Positions 23,518 to 40,105 of a DNA stretch of 40,105 nt are shown piece by piece (the first letter of the stretch is position 1; every line of letters begins with the position of its first letter). Location: the IMG/VR virus record IMGVR_UViG_2537562190_000015. One strand, written 5' to 3'. The notes beneath the pieces are model-generated. The model was not told the DNA's origin and made no database searches. It saw only the letters and a program-made list of their open reading frames with translations. The position numbers were made by a program, and so were the translations under genes. The DNA comes from a virus. Its lineage: Duplodnaviria; Heunggongvirae; Uroviricota; Caudoviricetes.

Positions 23518-23802
23518 TTTGTCGCTCCATGCGCTTGCTCTTCATCTAGCGGTTAAAATATTACTTCAAATCTTTCTGTATGAAGATTTGAGCACGTTGG
23601 CCTTACATACATCTGTCGGTTGTATTTCCCTCCAGAATGCCAGCAGGACCGCACTTTGTTACACAACCAATACTATTAATTGAAAACATTCCTAATATTT
23701 GACATAAATCATCAACAAAACACAAAGAGGTCAGACCAGATTGAAACGATAAAAACGATAATGCAAACTACGCGCCCTCGTATCACATGGAAGGTTTTAC
23801 CA

Positions 23803-24213
23803 ATGGCTCAGGTTGCCATTTTTAAAGAAATATTCGATCAAGTGCGAAAAGATTTAAACTGTGAATTGTTTTATTCTGAACTAAAACGTCACAATGTCTC
23901 ACATTATATTTACTATCTAGCCACAGATAATATTCACATTGTGTTAGAAAACGATAACACTGTGTTAATAAAAGGACTTAAAAAGGTTGTAAATGTTAAA
24001 TTCTCAAGAAATACGCATCTTATAGAAACGTCCTTTGATAGGTTGAAATCAAGAGAAATCACATTTCAGCAATACAAGGAAAATCTTGCTAAAGCAGGAG
24101 TTTTCCGATGGGTTACAAATATCCACGAACATAAAAGATATTACTATACCTTTGATAATTCATTACTATTTACTGAGAGCATTCAGAACACTACACAAAT
24201 CTTTCCACGCTAA
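23803..24213 (+). CDS. hypothetical protein, YbcV-like (136 aa from internal ATG)
   Basis: The ORF track gives 177 aa from a TTG; the ATG at 23803 with an upstream GGAAGG gives 136 aa ([51 protein letters not shown]...). Confidence 0.6.
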
Positions 24214-26587: not shown

Positions 26588-27685
26588 ATGAAAAAATTAA
26601 CAGTGGCAATTTCTGCTGTAGCTGCATCAGTACTGATGGCGATGTCTGCTCAGGCAGCTGAAATTTATAATAAAGACAGTAACAAGCTGGATCTGTACGG
26701 GAAAGTTAATGCCAAGCACTACTTTTCCTCTAACGATGCAGATGATGGTGATACTACTTATGTTCGTCTGGGCTTCAAAGGCGAAACCCAAATCAACGAT
26801 CAGCTGACTGGTTTCGGTCAGTGGGAATATGAATTCAAAGGCAACCGCGCTGAATCTCAAGGTTCCTCCAAAGACAAAACCCGTCTTGCATTTGCAGGCC
26901 TGAAATTCGGTGACTACGGCTCAATCGATTACGGCCGTAACTACGGTGTAGCATACGACATCGGTGCGTGGACTGACGTTCTGCCAGAATTCGGTGGCGA
27001 TACCTGGACCCAAACAGATGTGTTCATGACTGGTCGCACCACTGGTGTTGCAACCTATCGTAACAACGACTTCTTTGGTCTGGTTGATGGTCTGAACTTT
27101 GCTGCTCAGTACCAAGGCAAAAACGATCGTAGCGATTTCGATAACTACACCGAAGGTAACGGTGATGGCTTCGGTTTCTCTGCTACCTATGAATACGAAG
27201 GATTCGGTATCGGTGCAACTTATGCGAAATCTGATCGTACCGACACTCAAGTTAATGCAGGGAAAGTTCTTCCTGAAGTATTTGCTTCCGGTAAAAATGC
27301 AGAAGTTTGGGCCGCAGGTCTGAAATATGACGCTAACAACATTTACCTGGCCACTACCTATTCTGAAACCCAGAATATGACTGTATTTGCTGATCACTTC
27401 GTTGCTAATAAAGCTCAAAACTTCGAAGCTGTTGCACAATATCAGTTCGATTTCGGTCTGCGTCCGTCCGTTGCTTACCTGCAATCTAAAGGTAAGGATC
27501 TTGGAGTATGGGGCGATCAGGACTTAGTCAAATATGTTGATGTAGGTGCAACCTATTACTTCAACAAAAATATGTCTACTTTCGTTGATTACAAAATCAA
27601 CCTGCTTGACAAAAATGACTTCACTAAAGCACTCGGTGTAAGCACTGATGACATCGTTGCTGTAGGTCTGGTTTACCAGTTCTAA
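26588..27685 (+). CDS. OmpC/OmpF-family general porin (phage-borne, NmpC/Lc-like), intact
   Basis: 365-aa ORF with signal peptide [40 protein letters not shown]… and C-terminal …VAVGLVYQF; orientation opposite to the late genes, as nmpC is in DLP12. Confidence 0.9.
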
Positions 27686-34049: not shown

Positions 34050-34140
34050 CCTCCAAATATTGCGCGTTATGCATGTTATTTCACGCAATTATTTTGCGCA
34101 AGTTGATTTGCTTATCACGCAATAAAGAAATGTAATAAAC
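34050..34140. promoter_or_regulatory. OR operator/promoter region (pR / pRM) between cro and cI
   Basis: Repeated TCACGCAA / TTGCGCAA half-sites (TTTCACGCAATTATTTTGCGCAAG, TTATCACGCAATAAA) in a 97-bp divergent intergenic region. Confidence 0.6.
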
Positions 34141-34142
34141 GC

Positions 34143-34835
34143 ATGAACATAGGAAACCGAGTCAGACAACTTCGCCAAGCGAAGAACATGAAAATCGCCG
34201 ATCTCGCTGAAGCGATAGGAGTAGATGCGGCGAACATCTCGCGCTTAGAAACGGGTAAGCAAAAACAATTTACCGAACAAACACTGAGTAATATTGCCAA
34301 GAGCTTAGGTGTTGATATTGCTGATCTCTTTACCTCTGCCCACAAAAGTAATACTGTATATAAAAACAGTAATAATGAGGATGTTGCGCAGGTGAAGGAT
34401 GTGTTCCGTATTGAAATGCTGGATATCAGTGCCAGTGCGGGAAATGGCCTTATCCAGGGCGGTGATGTCATTGATGTGATTCATGCCATCGAATACAGAA
34501 CTGATAATGCTGTATCAATGTTCGGCGGACGACCAGCCAATCACATCAAAGTTATCAACGTTCGTGGGGACAGTATGTGTCCAACCATTGAGCCAGGAGA
34601 TCTCATCTTCGTTGATGTCAGCATCAATCAGTTTGATGGTGATGGTATATATGTCTTTGGTTTTGATGACAAAATATACGTTAAAAGACTTCAAATGATT
34701 CCTGACAAACTGCTGGTGATTTCTGATAACCAGATTTACCGTGAATGGGGAATTACTAGCGAAAACGAACACCGATTCATGGTCTTTGGAAAGGTCTTAA
34801 TCAGTCAGTCGCAAACCCTTAAGAGACATAATTAA
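34143..34835 (+). CDS. cI: CI-type prophage repressor (HTH plus S24 LexA-like autopeptidase)
   Basis: 230-aa ORF; N-terminal XRE HTH (KIADLAEAIGVDAANISRLETGK); Ala-Gly cleavage site (SASAGNG); S24 motifs GDSMCPTI (Ser) and KRL (Lys). Confidence 0.9.
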   Translation: MNIGNRVRQLRQAKNMKIADLAEAIGVDAANISRLETGKQKQFTEQTLSNIAKSLGVDIADLFTSAHKSNTVYKNSNNEDVAQVKDVFRIEMLDISASAGNGLIQGGDVIDVIHAIEYRTDNAVSMFGGRPANHIKVINVRGDSMCPTIEPGDLIFVDVSINQFDGDGIYVFGFDDKIYVKRLQMIPDKLLVISDNQIYREWGITSENEHRFMVFGKVLISQSQTLKRHN

Positions 34836-34854
34836 CCTCAATATCCCATCCATC

Positions 34855-34876
34855 GGCCACCGAAAGGTGGCTTTTT
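34855..34876 (+). terminator. intrinsic terminator after cI
   Basis: GGCCACC-gaaa-GGTGGC followed by TTTTT. Confidence 0.6.
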
Positions 34877-34877
34877 A

Positions 34878-34940
34878 TTACCTATAAATTTGCATATCAC
34901 GCAAATATCACTTGCATATCTCGCAATTTAATTTTATCTT
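34878..34940 (+). promoter_or_regulatory. OL operator / candidate pL promoter region
   Basis: TTGCATATCACGCAAATATCACTTGCATATCTCGCAATTTAATTTTATCTT: same TCACGCAA-type half-sites as OR, and a TTGCAT…17 nt…TATCTT -35/-10 candidate. Confidence 0.5.
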
Positions 34941-35100
34941 TTGTTCCAGACCAACTACAGGATTACAACAAAATCTGGTTGCAACACGGTGCATGTGTCG
35001 TAAGCAGTCAGTAAATGTCAAAAACGAACAGGCAGGACGCCCACGAAGTAGCCGCCTGGGGCATATGAAGTCCAGGATGATTCGTTAGCAACAAAAAAGC

Positions 35101-35126
35101 GCCCTACAGGACGCTTAGCTCTTTAA
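35101..35126 (-). terminator. intrinsic terminator of the antisense zinc-ribbon gene
   Basis: Minus strand AAGCGTCC-tgta-GGGCGCTT followed by TTTTTT, 30 bp after the stop at 35155. Confidence 0.55.
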
Positions 35127-35154
35127 CAATCTGGATATCCACAACAGTAGTAAT

Positions 35155-35646
35155 CTACAGATTGCCGTTAAGTTTTCTGGACAACTCCTCAATGGATGGA
35201 GGCGATACGTAATCCGGATTTTTATTCATCAGAAACTTATTTTCACAGTGGAGGCACCTGCTTTTATGAAAAAGCTCATCTTCGCTAACCGGGAATGGTT
35301 GAAGTATCGATACTATCTTTTGTCCAAAACATTTTGGGCAAAGATGCATGGTTATGCTGCCACCGTTCACGATTACCTCCTTCGAGTATACAAAAGTACC
35401 CGACTCAAGTTGGTTAAGGATATAGCCTTCCGTCTGAGCCTCAAAGTTTTCGAATTCTGCAATTTTAGCTTTGAGAGAAGCATTTATTTCTTGATAAGAG
35501 CCCACCAGTTCAACGAGAGACACGCATTCGCGCTGAATAGACGCAAGCTTTGAGTTCAGCTCACCAATAGCCGCATTTACTTCAGCTTGAGTTTTTGCCT
35601 CGTTCATTAGTTTTGCAATCTGGGCTGTTTCACGAATAGCCGTCAT
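35155..35646 (-). CDS. hypothetical coiled-coil plus C-terminal zinc-ribbon protein (~163 aa); candidate lysogen-expressed moron
   Basis: MTAIRETAQIAKLMNEAKTQAEVNAAIGELNSKLASIQRECVSLVELVGSYQEINASLKAKIAEFENFEAQ… then …HLCPKCFGQKIVSILQPFPVSEDELFHKSRCLHCENKF (CxxC…CxxC). The upstream part of the 259-aa ORF-track frame is Arg/Pro-rich and was judged non-coding. Confidence 0.55.
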   Translation of the reverse strand: MTAIRETAQIAKLMNEAKTQAEVNAAIGELNSKLASIQRECVSLVELVGSYQEINASLKAKIAEFENFEAQTEGYILNQLESGTFVYSKEVIVNGGSITMHLCPKCFGQKIVSILQPFPVSEDELFHKSRCLHCENKFLMNKNPDYVSPPSIEELSRKLNGNL

Positions 35647-35946
35647 TGCTGCCGTTAATTCAGCGATCACATTGAATACTCTTATTGTTGTTGGGGATAT
35701 CCAGATTAACCGAATCCTTGTTGTTGGGGAATAACCAGGTCCACCTCGCCTGATGTGGCTAAAAGCAGGCACATAACAGCTAAGTATTTTCAACCAGAGA
35801 GAATCCTTAGCGTTGTGGTGAATGCGGCTCAGCGCACGCGGGTTAAGGTTGAGGCTGACAGTCGACCTTCTGTGGATACCCACCCGCCTGGTGTGCAACC
35901 TTCGCCAGGCACCGGGAGGCACCCGGCACCACAACTTTATGCTGTG

Positions 35947-36003
35947 TGTAGTCCTGGCGGTACCAGTTTGTACCCTTGCTTCCGGCTGGTACCGTCCTTT
36001 TTT
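35947..36003 (+). ncRNA. candidate small RNA 3' end / intrinsic terminator with partial resemblance to DicF
   Basis: 9-bp stem CGGTACCAG…CTGGTACCG followed by TCC TTTTTT; the segment CCTGGCGGTACCAGTTTGTACCC resembles the DicF core TTGGCGGTATCAGTTTTACTCC as recalled from memory. Confidence 0.3.
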
Positions 36004-36004
36004 G

Positions 36005-36091
36005 CAAAACAGAGAAGAGCATCACCGGACGACGGGCTCATAACCCAATCCATCCGGGCGGCTGCCACCGCAGGTGTTCTTCTCTGTTTTG
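36005..36091 (+). other. long imperfect hairpin (14-bp perfect arms CAAAACAGAGAAGA / TCTTCTCTGTTTTG plus 4 bp), candidate RNase III processing site in the early leader
   Basis: Inverted repeat read directly; it encloses a ~46-nt GC-rich loop and sits 50 nt upstream of the first early ORF's RBS. Confidence 0.5.
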
Positions 36092-36140
36092 TGGAGAAAC
36101 CAACCGACCTTGCAAGGTCGATATGATGAGGAGCAGCAAA

Positions 36141-36503
36141 ATGGCTAGCGAACGCAGTACTGATGTGCAGGCATTTATCGGGGAGCTGGACGGCGGCGTA
36201 TTTGAAACCAAAATCGGCGCAGTTCTCAGTGAGGTCGCTTCCGGTGTGATGAACACGAAAACCAAAGGGAAGGTCTCACTCAATCTGGAAATCGAACCGT
36301 TTGATGAGAACCGTGTGAAAATCAAACACAAACTCTCATATGTTCGCCCAACTAACCGCGGGAAAATTTCCGAAGAAGACACCACCGAAACGCCGATGTA
36401 TGTCAATCGCGGTGGTCGCCTGACTATTCTGCAGGAAGACCAGGGACAATTACTGACTCTTGCCGGTGAACCTGACGGAAAACTCCGCGCAGCAGGTCGT
36501 TAA
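36141..36503 (+). CDS. hypothetical early protein (YfdP-like, 120 aa)
   Basis: ATG preceded by GAGGAG at 7-nt spacing; MASERSTDVQAFIGELDGGVFETKIGAVLSEVASGVMNTKTKGKVSLNLEIEPFDENRVKIK…. Confidence 0.6.
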   Translation: MASERSTDVQAFIGELDGGVFETKIGAVLSEVASGVMNTKTKGKVSLNLEIEPFDENRVKIKHKLSYVRPTNRGKISEEDTTETPMYVNRGGRLTILQEDQGQLLTLAGEPDGKLRAAGR

Positions 36504-36568
36504 TATCGTTCGTAATAAACTGATTATTTATCTCATCACTGAATATCTTTATATAGTGAGGACTTATT

Positions 36569-37393
36569 ATGTCTCAGAACTTAGACGCAACCGCAATTAA
36601 TCAAATCCATGCCCTTATTTCTGCTCAGGGTGTTAATGAAATTATCAGTAAGATTGGTGCCGATGCTGTGGCATTGCCTGAGAATTTCCGCATTCATGAT
36701 CTGGAAAAATTTAATTTAAATCGCTTCCGTTTCCGTGGTGCACTTTCCACTGCCAGCATCGATGATTTTACCCGTTATTCTAAAGATCTTGCAGATGAAG
36801 GCACCCGCTGCTTTATCGATGCCGATAATATGCGTGCCGTCAGTGTGCTTAACCTGGGTACTATTGATGAGCCAGGTCACGCAGATAACACTGCCACTCT
36901 CAAACTGAAAAAGACAGCACCGTTCTCTGCTCTGTTGTCTGTTAACGGCGAGCGTAACTCCCAGAAGTCACTGGCAGAATGGATCGAAGACTGGGCCGAC
37001 TACCTTGTGGGCTTTGATGCTAATGGTGACGCCATTCAAGCAACAAAAGCGGCTGCGGCAGTCCGTAAAATCACGATTGAAGCAAACCAGACCGCTGATT
37101 TTGAAGATAATGACTTCAGCGGCAAACGCTCCCTGATGGAGTCTGTCGAAGCGAAGACCAAAGACATTATGCCAGTGGCATTTGAATTTAAATGCGTTCC
37201 GTTTGAAGGTCTGAAAGAACGTCCGTTTAAATTACGCCTCAGCATTATCACTGGCGATCGTCCTGTACTGGTTCTGCGCATTATTCAGCTGGAAGCGGTG
37301 CAGGAAGAAATGGCTAACGAATTTCGTGATCTGCTTGTTGAGAAATTCAAAGACAGCAAAGTAGAAACCTTTATTGGTACTTTCACCGCCTGA
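36569..37393 (+). CDS. hypothetical early protein (YfdQ-like, 274 aa)
   Basis: 274-aa [51 protein letters not shown]…; length and neighbourhood match the CPS-53 yfdQ family as recalled. Confidence 0.6.
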
Positions 37394-37520
37394 TTTCATT
37401 ACTGCAAATGCCCCTGCGGGGGCATTTATGGAAACGTAATTAACTCAATAATCACCGGATGGTGAGGGCTTCCTTTTACCAGAATTCAGCGCGGTGCAGT
37501 GCATATACGTGGAGAACAAA

Positions 37521-38057
37521 ATGTCATTTATTAAAACTTTTTCCGGGAAGCATTTTTATTATGACAAGATAAATAAAGACGACATCGATATTAACGATAT
37601 CGCGGTTTCCCTTTCAAATATCTGTCGCTTTGCCGGTCATCTTTCGCACTTCTACAGCGTCGCCCAACATGCGGTTCTTTGCAGCCAGCTGGTGCCGCAG
37701 GAATTTGCTTTTGAAGCGTTAATGCATGATGCAACAGAAGCGTATTGCCAGGACATTCCCGCACCACTGAAACGCCTTCTTCCTGACTATAAACGGATGG
37801 AAGAAAAAATAGACGCCGTAATCCGTGAGAAATACGGGTTACCCCCAGTTATGAGTACACCCGTGAAATATGCCGATCTCATCATGCTGGCAACCGAACG
37901 CCGCGATCTCGGGCTTGATGATGGCTCTTTCTGGCCTGTACTGGAAGGCATCCCGGCAACAGAAATGTTCAACGTGATTCCACTGGCACCGGGTCATGCC
38001 TACGGGATGTTTATGGAACGTTTTAACGATTTATCGGAGTTACGCAAATGCGCATGA
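37521..38057 (+). CDS. HD-domain phosphohydrolase (YfdR-like, 178 aa)
   Basis: His and Asp motif residues in …FAGHLSHFYSVAQHAVLCSQLVPQEFAFEALMHDATEAYCQDIP…; start at the Met preceded by GGAG. Confidence 0.65.
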   Translation: MSFIKTFSGKHFYYDKINKDDIDINDIAVSLSNICRFAGHLSHFYSVAQHAVLCSQLVPQEFAFEALMHDATEAYCQDIPAPLKRLLPDYKRMEEKIDAVIREKYGLPPVMSTPVKYADLIMLATERRDLGLDDGSFWPVLEGIPATEMFNVIPLAPGHAYGMFMERFNDLSELRKCA

Positions 38058-38410
38058 ATGTTTTCGAAATGGAAGGGTTTCTTCGCGGGAAATGTGTACC
38101 GCGAGATCTGAAAGTGAACGAAACAAATGCTGAGTACCTGTTACGTAAATTCGACGCGCTTGAAGCTAAATGTGCGGCACTGGAAAACAAAATAATACCA
38201 GTGTCAGCTGAACTGCCACCAGCAAATGAAAGTGTTCTGTTATTTGATGCTAATGGAGAAGGCTGGCTGATTGGCTGGCGTTCTCTCTGGTACACCTGGG
38301 GACAAAAAGAAACCGGAGAATGGCAGTGGACATTTCAGGTCGGGGACCTTGAAAACGTCAATATCACTCACTGGGCAGTAATGCCAAAAGCACCGGAGGC
38401 TGGAGCATAA
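38048..38410 (+). CDS. hypothetical protein (YfdS-like, 120 aa)
   Basis: 120-aa ORF, Trp-rich C-terminus (…GWLIGWRSLWYTWGQKETGEWQWTFQVGDLENVNITHWAVMP…); overlaps neighbours in operon fashion. Confidence 0.55.
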   Translation: MRMNVFEMEGFLRGKCVPRDLKVNETNAEYLLRKFDALEAKCAALENKIIPVSAELPPANESVLLFDANGEGWLIGWRSLWYTWGQKETGEWQWTFQVGDLENVNITHWAVMPKAPEAGA

Positions 38411-38715
38411 TGACCACATTTACCAATAAAGAACTGATTAAAGAAATCAAAGAACGAATCAGCAGCCTAGAGGTTCGAGACGATATTGAGCGCCGTGCTT
38501 ATGAAATCGCACTCGTATCTCTGGAAGTAGAGCCAGATGAACGCGAAGCCTATGAATTATTCATGGAAAAGCGTTTCGGTGACTTAGTAGATCGTCGGAG
38601 AGCAAAAAACGGCGATAACGAATACATGGCATGGGATATGACTCTCGGTTGGATCGTCTGGCAGCAACGAGCTGGTATCCATTTTTCAACAATGTCACAG
38701 CAAGAGGTGAAATAA
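38410..38715 (+). CDS. hypothetical protein (YfdT-like, 101 aa)
   Basis: 101-aa ORF MTTFTNKELIKEIKERISSLEVRDDIERRAYEIALVSLEVEPDEREAYELFMEKRF…; ATGA overlap with the upstream gene. Confidence 0.55.
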   Translation: MTTFTNKELIKEIKERISSLEVRDDIERRAYEIALVSLEVEPDEREAYELFMEKRFGDLVDRRRAKNGDNEYMAWDMTLGWIVWQQRAGIHFSTMSQQEVK

Positions 38716-39086
38716 TGGAGCCATACAGCCTCACACTCGATGAGGCCTGTCATTTTCTCAAAATATCCAGACCGACTGCCATTAACTGGATACGCACAGG
38801 CCGCCTACAGGCAACACGTAAAGATCCAACCAAGCCAAAATCTCCTTACCTCACAACACGGCAAGCTTGCATTGCGGCGCTTCAGTCTCCGCTGCATACT
38901 GTCCAGGTGAGCGCGGGTGATGGCATAACAGAGGAAAGAAAATGTCACTCTTCCGCAGAAATGAAATATGGTATGCCTCGTATTCGCTCCCGGGCGGGAA
39001 ACGAATTAAGGAATCTCTTGGCACAAAGGACAAGCGGCAAGCTCAGGAGTTGCACGACAAGCGAAAAGCAGAACTCTGGCGAGTAG
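38715..39086 (+). CDS. xis: excisionase-like HTH protein (Xis/AlpA family); 3' extent uncertain
   Basis: [38 protein letters not shown]… is a typical excisionase/AlpA HTH; sits directly upstream of and overlapping int. The frame runs 145 nt into int, so the true stop may be earlier. Confidence 0.55.
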
Positions 39087-40105
39087 AAAAGCTAGGGGAT
39101 TTACCTGATGTCACTTTTGAAGAGGCCTGCCTAAGATGGCTTGAGGAAAAAGCTGATAAAAAATCTCTCGATTCAGATAAAAGCCGGATTGAGTTCTGGC
39201 TTGAACATTTTGAGGGTATAAGGCTTAAAGATATCTCGGAGGCAAAGATTTACTCTGCTGTAAGCAGAATGCATAACAGAAAGACGAAAGAAATATGGAA
39301 ACAGAAAGTTCAGGCCGCCATCAGGAAAGGTAAAGAACCGCCTGTTTATGAACCAAAGCCAGTATCAACTCAGACAAAGGCAAAGCATCTTGCCATGATA
39401 AAGGCCATTCTCCGTGCTGCAGAACGCGACTGGAAGTGGCTGGAAAAAGCGCCTGTCATCAAGATACCAGCGGTCAGAAACAAGCGAGTCAGATGGCTGG
39501 AAAAGGAGGAAGCAAAACGCCTTATTGATGAGTGCCCCGAACCACTGAAATCTGTCGTCAAGTTTGCGCTGGCAACTGGTCTGAGAAAGTCGAACATCAT
39601 AAATCTGGAATGGCAACAAATCGACATGCAGCGACGAGTTGCCTGGGTGAATCCAGAAGAGAGCAAATCAAACCGCGCCATTGGTGTGGCGCTGAACGAT
39701 ACCGCCTGTAAAGTGTTGCGTGATCAAATAGGCAAGCATCACAAATGGGTGTTTGTACATACCAAGGCGGCTAAGCGAGCAGATGGAACATCAACGCCTG
39801 CGGTCAGGAAGATGCGCATCGACAGCAAGACATCATGGCTATCAGCTTGTCGTCGTGCAGGAATTGAAGATTTCCGTTTCCATGACCTCAGACACACCTG
39901 GGCAAGCTGGCTGATCCAGTCAGGCGTCCCATTATCTGTGCTTCAGGAAATGGGCGGATGGGAGTCCATAGAAATGGTTCGTAGGTATGCTCACCTTGCG
40001 CCTAATCATTTGACAGAGCATGCAAGGAAAATAGACGACATTTTTGGTGATAATGTCCCAAATATGTCCCACTGTGGAATTATGGAGGATATAAAGAAGG
40101 CGTAA
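38942..40105 (+). CDS. int: tyrosine site-specific integrase (DLP12 IntD-like)
   Basis: 387-aa [53 protein letters not shown]… with C-terminal catalytic R…[11 protein letters not shown]…Y motifs; the stop codon is the last 3 nt of the window. Confidence 0.9.

Follow-up and report, generated by a model that had tools for sequence, protein, structure and literature searches.

The cryptic prophage CPS-53/KplE1 of Escherichia coli K-12 carries the genes yfdQ, yfdR, yfdS and yfdT, and a multicopy fragment with these four genes was reported to suppress over-initiation mutants (Noguchi and Katayama 2016, PMC4776307). Extra copies of yfdQ and yfdR together with either yfdS or yfdT inhibited initiation at oriC in wild-type cells, yfdQ being needed along with yfdR for the oriC inhibition in K-12, and oriC replication in vitro was inhibited in extracts over-supplied with the four Yfd proteins (PMC4776307). 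K-12 YfdR binds domain I of DnaA via Phe46 and competes with DiaA and DnaB (PMC4776307), and in later work it is described as a prophage-borne inhibitor and a competitor of DnaB at DnaA domain I (PMC5448010, PMC12122000). It was suggested that the module once aided phage growth in the way that lambda P inhibits DnaA, and homologues in Shigella phage SfV were noted (PMC4776307). Here, a yfdR gene is analysed in a stretch of viral DNA of 40,105 nucleotides (nt) (Caudoviricetes; IMG/VR record IMGVR_UViG_2537562190_000015), the whole of which is called the window, and its probable role in an intact phage is weighed together with the structured RNA elements upstream of it.

The gene had been flagged in an original prediction, made from the sequence alone, as encoding a 178-residue HD-domain protein at 37521-38057 on the plus strand, and the open reading frame (ORF) was recovered at exactly these coordinates, from an ATG at 37521 to a stop codon ending at 38057, with a GGAG six bases 5' of the ATG. 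An in-frame GTG at 37494 could lengthen the protein by nine residues; the K-12 and SfV annotations start at the ATG. By side-by-side translation over the full length, the protein is identical to K-12 YfdR (b2361) at 177 of 178 positions (99.4%), and the sole difference, D23 in the window and V23 in MG1655, lies outside the conserved motifs; the identity to SfV orf30 is 97.8%. Because only this one substitution (D23V) separates the two proteins, the DnaA-binding findings for K-12 YfdR were carried over to the protein of the window. Identical DNA is labelled 'yfdR: 5'-deoxynucleotidase' in RefSeq, and the K-12 protein carries the 5'-deoxynucleotidase annotation too. Of 5426 complete E. coli genomes, 2971 hold the yfdR sequence, often more than once. 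By sequence and by synteny with K-12 b2361 the flagged gene is assigned as the yfdR orthologue, and it is an already known prophage gene, named and partly characterised. A few E. coli entries seem to fuse DUF2303 (YfdQ) to YfdR, and these are most likely frameshifts or gene-calling artefacts.

The flanks agree with this assignment. In CPS-53, YfdR has the same length and the same yfdP, yfdQ, yfdS and yfdT flanks as in the window, and the four neighbouring products are 98-99% identical to their K-12 counterparts in the same order. Four small same-strand neighbours before xis and int had been predicted; all four are real, two upstream and two downstream of yfdR, although the 274-residue DUF2303 protein is not small. 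CPS-53 is a decayed prophage, which has lost the structured leader of about 450 nt as well as all other sequence upstream of the ribosome-binding site of yfdP, whereas the module of the window lies in an apparently complete lambda-like prophage beside its own xis and int. Between the immunity region and xis/int, such a module is present in SfV-like prophages and in many lambdoid ones. The same block in the same order is found in SfV (orf32 to orf28), and in Salmonella phage ST64B (sb35-37) yfdP, yfdQ and yfdR follow the repressor with the same leader elements as in the window. The virion modules of SfV and ST64B differ from the lambda-type J, H, A and B genes of the window. The DNA from 36000 to 40105 is 98.5-99.6% identical to the isolated temperate coliphages PhiR49_1, PhiR29 and Kati.

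The HD-domain claim was borne out at the level of single residues. H50, H69-D70 and D119, the H...HD...D metal-binding motif, are all present in YfdR, so that the loss of these residues on alignment, named beforehand as what would count against the claim, was not seen. The four residues are invariant in 25 relatives with 65-96% identity, and in 59 cluster representatives with 39-68% identity H50 is invariant and H40, H69, D70, E73, D78 and D119 are conserved at 90% or above. YfdR has the all-helical HD fold, and it is, by motif and fold, a small single-domain metal-dependent phosphohydrolase of the HD superfamily; its identity, its fold and its conserved catalytic residues are established. The nearest structural neighbours are the nucleotide phosphohydrolases YfbR, HDDC2, DatZ and OxsA. 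With YfbR, the chromosomal 5'-deoxynucleotidase of E. coli (PDB 2paq/2par), the similarity is local and the relation lies at the level of the active site, where the YfdR block MHDATEAYCQDIPAPLK aligns with the YfbR block YHDASEVLTGDLPTPVK (hhalign probability 95%). YfdR falls below the cut-offs of Pfam YfbR-like PF12917 (24.3 bits, cut-off 25.9), Pfam HD_3 (17 bits, cut-off 22.5) and the NCBIfam YfbR equivalog NF003009 (PRK03826; 19.9 bits, cut-off 122), and orthology with YfbR was rejected on these Pfam and NCBIfam thresholds and on the alignment of the active-site block alone. The structural-genomics protein Atu1052 of Agrobacterium tumefaciens (PDB 2gz4), whose function is unknown, is about 26% identical to YfdR and is informative for the fold only.

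The family is very large, with 22,939 cluster representatives (50% identity) at E<=1e-3, and relatives of YfdR were found in 333 phage records from many host genera, including numerous virulent phages and jumbo phages. In the homologue lists, several of the cluster representatives, 350-410 residues long (e.g. P0122, P0127, P0128, P0137), hold two YfdR-like stretches and are apparently tandem HD-HD fusions. The product name given to YfdR through PHROG 318 is deoxyribonucleoside 5' monophosphate phosphatase. The deoxynucleoside-5'-monophosphatase Dmp of phage T5 has the same annotated reaction and is also encoded by an early phage gene; as the basis of this name it was rejected, since no BLASTP alignment below E = 3 was obtained and Dmp, which is not homologous to YfdR, falls in PHROG 415, of the polynucleotide-kinase/phosphatase type. 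The PHROG 318 name is therefore best read as an analogy, with no sign in the sequences of kinship with T5 Dmp. No paper was found by a literature search combining phosphatase, prophage and HD terms.

The role in an intact phage is probably the shut-off of host replication after induction, with yfdPQRST as a host-takeover cassette. According to this proposal, the module would be silent in the lysogen, and upon loss of the repressor it would be transcribed rightwards in the window, towards xis and int, as delayed-early genes. YfdR and YfdQ, together with YfdS or YfdT, would then occupy domain I of DnaA, by which the DiaA-assisted assembly and the recruitment of DnaB at oriC would be blocked and no new rounds of chromosome replication would start. 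Such a shut-off would help a phage in which, as here, an O-like initiator is encoded but no helicase has been identified, and which would thus rely on host DnaB. DnaA binding and the inhibition on over-expression have been shown in the literature for the K-12 protein, which differs by one residue; when the module is expressed, how well it works at native levels, what the phage gains by it and how catalysis might relate to DnaA binding are points that we infer. The reported outcome is like that of lambda P and of Bacillus subtilis SirA, in that initiation at oriC is blocked through the binding of a phage-encoded or developmental protein to DnaA (PMC4776307). The proteins are unrelated. Lambda P, itself the helicase loader, targets domain III of DnaA, whereas the HD-fold enzyme YfdR targets domain I at Phe46.

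Several observations weigh against the shut-off proposal. Purified YfdR only moderately inhibits DiaA binding and DnaB binding, the replication effect in K-12 requires multicopy expression, the deletion of yfdQRST is without phenotype, and the authors themselves grant that the effect could be an artefact of over-expression (PMC4776307). The opposite-strand gene and the terminator-like hairpin that separate the candidate pL from yfdP also count against it, and no N-like antiterminator was found. Moreover, the conservation of the catalytic residues across so large a family (22,939 cluster representatives) is left unexplained by DnaA binding. This conservation implies that hydrolase activity itself is under selection, and the chief rival is accordingly a purely enzymatic role, in which YfdR would dephosphorylate deoxynucleoside monophosphates (dNMPs) or another nucleotide and reshape the pool in lytic growth, DnaA binding being incidental. 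Besides the HD metal ligands and the YfbR-type residues E73 and D78 conserved in the family, the structural neighbours among nucleotide phosphohydrolases, the deoxynucleotidase naming by RefSeq and PHROG and the related genes of numerous virulent and jumbo phages with other hosts all speak for such a role. It is nevertheless rather unlikely as the whole explanation. YfdR is a structural homologue of YfbR with reportedly much lower nucleotide affinities, and its function was called elusive (PMC4776307, citing Zimmerman et al. 2008); the yield of cytidine monophosphate was unaffected by yfdR deletion in a metabolic-engineering strain (PMC10870394); and T5 Dmp offers no homologue to argue from. 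The conversion of dNMPs to nucleosides, sensible for T5, by which the host DNA is degraded, is also hard to justify for a lambdoid phage in need of deoxynucleoside triphosphates. A bifunctional YfdR is possible.

A benefit to the lysogen, by which low-level expression from the prophage would damp replication initiation or aid stress tolerance, would explain the retention of the gene in cryptic prophages. It would be in line with the prevalence of yfdR in complete E. coli genomes and its multiple copies, with the intact gene in the decayed CPS-53, and with the sensitivity of yfdQ and yfdS deletions to peroxide and methyl methanesulfonate (PMC4776307, citing Wang 2010 and Rooney 2009). However, initiation and hydroxyurea resistance were unchanged by the yfdQRST deletion (PMC4776307), genes placed, as here, between the immunity region and xis/int are typically delayed-early lytic ones and not morons, the independently expressed genes of lysogenic conversion, and the high prevalence may merely mirror the commonness of such prophages, so that this explanation appears less probable than the enzymatic one. 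The counter-defence role raised in the original prediction, namely the hydrolysis of a nucleotide second messenger of the host immune system by YfdR, is very improbable. It has general plausibility, in that HD enzymes include cyclic-nucleotide phosphodiesterases and the gene probably lies in an early operon, but the likeness to these phosphodiesterases is at the level of the general fold alone, no match was returned by PADLOC for YfdR, its four yfd neighbours or the minus-strand ORF at 35155-35646, and nothing was found in its favour. The shut-off of host replication was retained as the preferred explanation.

The features of the left part of the prophage are collected in Table 1.

Table 1. 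Coordinates of the features around yfdR in the window and the evidence for each of them.
Feature	Position	Strand	Evidence or remark
cI-like repressor	34143-34835	+	PHROG 4 and 6201
Terminator-like hairpin after cI	34855-34872	+	Terminator scan
Two operator-like 15-mers, TTGCATATCACGCAA and TTGCATATCTCGCAA; candidate oL/pL	34890-34904, 34912-34926	+	Putative function
Structured leader RNA motif, about 64 nt	35023-35086	+	Conserved block with covariation; head of the putative early-left operon
ORF of 163 residues, function unknown	35155-35646	-	PHROG 1244; own terminator at 35116-35097
STnc100-like RNA	35782-36005	+	cmscan RF02076, 40.3 bits (gathering score 47), E 2e-7; full-length model match
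yfdP homologue, 120 residues	36141-36503	+	98.3% identical to K-12 YfdP; PHROG 204
yfdQ homologue, 274 residues, DUF2303	36569-37393	+	Pfam DUF2303 at 2e-92; 99.3% identical to K-12 YfdQ
yfdR, 178 residues, HD domain	37521-38057	+	5'-deoxynucleotidase type; K-12 protein DnaA-binding
yfdS homologue, 120 residues, DUF551	38048-38410	+	Overlaps the yfdR stop by 10 nt
yfdT homologue, 101 residues	38410-38715	+	Matches K-12 yfdT
xis, excisionase, 123 residues	38715-39086	+	PHROG 2907, full length at 5e-45; HTH_17; overlaps the int start
int, tyrosine integrase	38942-40105	+	Pfam Phage_integrase at 5.5e-47; window ends at the int stop codon

The rest of the window is a minus-strand lambda-type virion module with the J, H, A and B genes, and the stretch between it and the left-operon module holds a Q-like antiterminator, an O-like replication initiator, a cII-like gene, cro and cI; on the basis of these three parts, the window is a mosaic lambdoid prophage, read from the tail-fibre end to int. 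Two plus-strand ORFs in AT-rich islands (G+C content 0.38-0.42) within the minus-strand late/lysis region are probably morons; the one at 26588-27685 encodes 365 residues (PHROG 410, function unknown), and the other at 23680-24213 encodes 177 residues and weakly matches a model for type II restriction enzymes (E 2e-4). At the tail-fibre end, the prophage-associated RNA IS009 (Rfam RF02111) was matched in full length and above threshold at 132-330 on the minus strand (224 bits), overlapping the minus-strand ORF at 98-673, and nothing besides it was returned by the Rfam scan at the gathering threshold.

The original prediction had placed the gene in the early-left (pL) operon, and the location of the yfdR module within a lambdoid pL operon is plausible. 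The order of cI, the hairpin and then two 15-mers would be the layout expected of oL/pL. The only other good copy of the 15-mers is at 34108-34122 in the cI/cro intergenic region, and the three copies, with the consensus TTGCnnATC[A/T]CGCAA, may serve as repressor operators (oR and oL). The genes of the yfdP-int interval lie close together on a single strand, and no convincing plus-strand terminator was found by the terminator scan of this interval. Within it, a GC-rich hairpin (GCCCC-TGC-GGGGC followed by ATTTAT) at 37411-37425 (+) in the 127-nt gap between yfdQ and yfdR was not flagged by that scan, and it might weakly attenuate transcription or affect RNA stability.

The difficulties for the pL assignment lie upstream of yfdP. 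No plus-strand sigma-70 promoter was detected near the candidate oL/pL by the consensus promoter scan, the minus-strand gene at 35155-35646 with its own terminator lies between the candidate pL and yfdP, a hairpin with six U at about 35961-36003 lies before yfdP, and no N-like antiterminator gene was seen. A lambdoid pL operon would consist of a repressor-controlled promoter and an uninterrupted same-strand unit. It follows from the opposite-strand gene, the hairpin and the lack of an N-like gene that read-through would need antitermination, or that yfdP-int would have an unrecognised promoter of its own. The start of a pL-type transcript just after cI was argued from the position of the leader RNA motif after the repressor genes. 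For the product of the minus-strand gene, a coiled coil is predicted at the N-terminus, and its C-terminus bears a CxxC...CxxC motif like that of a zinc ribbon. The slot which it occupies, between the leader motif and the STnc100-like region, is variable, and other genes than in the window are found there in SfV, Kati and ST64B; the differing content in SfV and Kati suggests that the gene is a lysogeny-expressed moron. Directly 3' of the hairpin at 35097-35116, an exact rrn-type boxA core (GCTCTTTAACAA) was observed at 35118-35129 (+), the sole such site in the window; no partner was found on the pR side, and as 20 of 100 shuffles were also matched at the mismatch setting used, it was not relied on.

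The structured GC-rich stretch from 35690 to 36140 contains the sub-threshold STnc100-like match, which ends in a hairpin and six U just upstream of yfdP and is followed by a second long hairpin at about 36003-36090. For the 456-nt region, the minimum free energy of folding was -183 kcal/mol versus -153 +/- 6 for shuffles (z = -4.7). The STnc100-like region is conserved at about 98% in SfV and Kati and at about 77% in ST64B, and it is absent from K-12 CPS-53. The related small RNA PasD lies near Q genes (2026 preprint, 10.64898/2026.05.13.724894), and an early-left location would therefore be an unusual context for an RNA of this kind. A longer YfdP of 226 residues, as annotated in phage Kati, was rejected, since the extension lies within the structured GC-rich region, has a composition unlike that of a protein and is broken in the window by a 1-nt indel.

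The leader RNA motif lies about 100 nt past the candidate oL/pL. In the comparison of the window with SfV, Kati, ST64B and a Klebsiella phage, the block at about 35023-35086 is conserved and its flanks change. By blastn, the motif was found in 51 phage records, with hosts from Escherichia, Shigella, Salmonella, Klebsiella, Citrobacter, Pantoea, Yersinia, Pectobacterium, Providencia and Aeromonas, and in the 40 phage records listed it is unannotated or overlaps nothing but a repeat feature or a 'hypothetical protein'. In the eight phage records inspected, it lies on the repressor strand roughly 100-400 nt downstream of the repressor gene and precedes genes of the early-left type, namely kil, recE, an exonuclease gene, rdgC, or yfdP, yfdQ and yfdR. 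The prophages with the motif showed no N-type antiterminator where they were examined.

An invariant 23-mer (AGGCAGGACGCCCACGAAGTAGC) is common to nine leader sequences, for which an outer stem and an inner hairpin were predicted by RNAalifold, with compensatory changes in 10 of 16 pairs; 98.6% of cells pair, versus 81% in shuffles and 22-41% with the partners slid. The 22-mer core was found in 92 stretches of species-representative genomes, almost all from Enterobacterales. In the covariance model of 89 copies, in which the core is invariant by construction, 95.1% of cells pair and 305 cells show a double change, with up to five pair types per position. Among the 74 genome loci with enough upstream sequence, a repressor homologue (one of nine) ends on the same strand a median of 190 nt upstream in 54, and YfdR homologues lie downstream of the motif on the same strand in 20 loci.

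The leader motif was not matched by the Rfam scan of 34800-36200 at E<=5, the DicF and ftsZ-DE matches of that scan (E above 1) being dismissed as noise, and no paper on its core sequence was found by text search. A second copy, for example on the pR side, was not found by a covariance-model search of the whole window with the filters off. From its structure and position, the motif may be a cis-acting antitermination or processing element. A leader antiterminator of this kind would act as the put RNA of HK022 does, to which it is unrelated in sequence; no similarity of the leader region to HK022 24-36 kb was obtained by blastn with word size 7. A more far-reaching proposal is that yfdPQRST would be a dedicated shut-off cassette of N-less lambdoid phages, the HD nucleotidase having been recruited as a competitor for DnaA domain I, and that its expression would depend on the leader RNA as a cis processive antiterminator letting transcription from pL pass the opposite-strand gene and the STnc100-like terminator and reach yfdP-int. 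This combination is doubtful, and it is put forward tentatively.

For the flagged gene, the useful result is the correct label together with the removal of the speculative counter-defence reading, and little else is at stake there. DnaA binding by YfdR has so far been seen only for cryptic-prophage genes on multicopy plasmids, and Noguchi and Katayama had already asked about its relevance in real phage development; the identical module is present in intact inducible phages (such as PhiR49_1, Kati and SfV), in which this relevance is directly testable. The leader RNA motif is more novel than yfdR and is most worth a separate look, as it is strongly covarying, has no Rfam family and heads early-left operons across the prophages of Enterobacterales.
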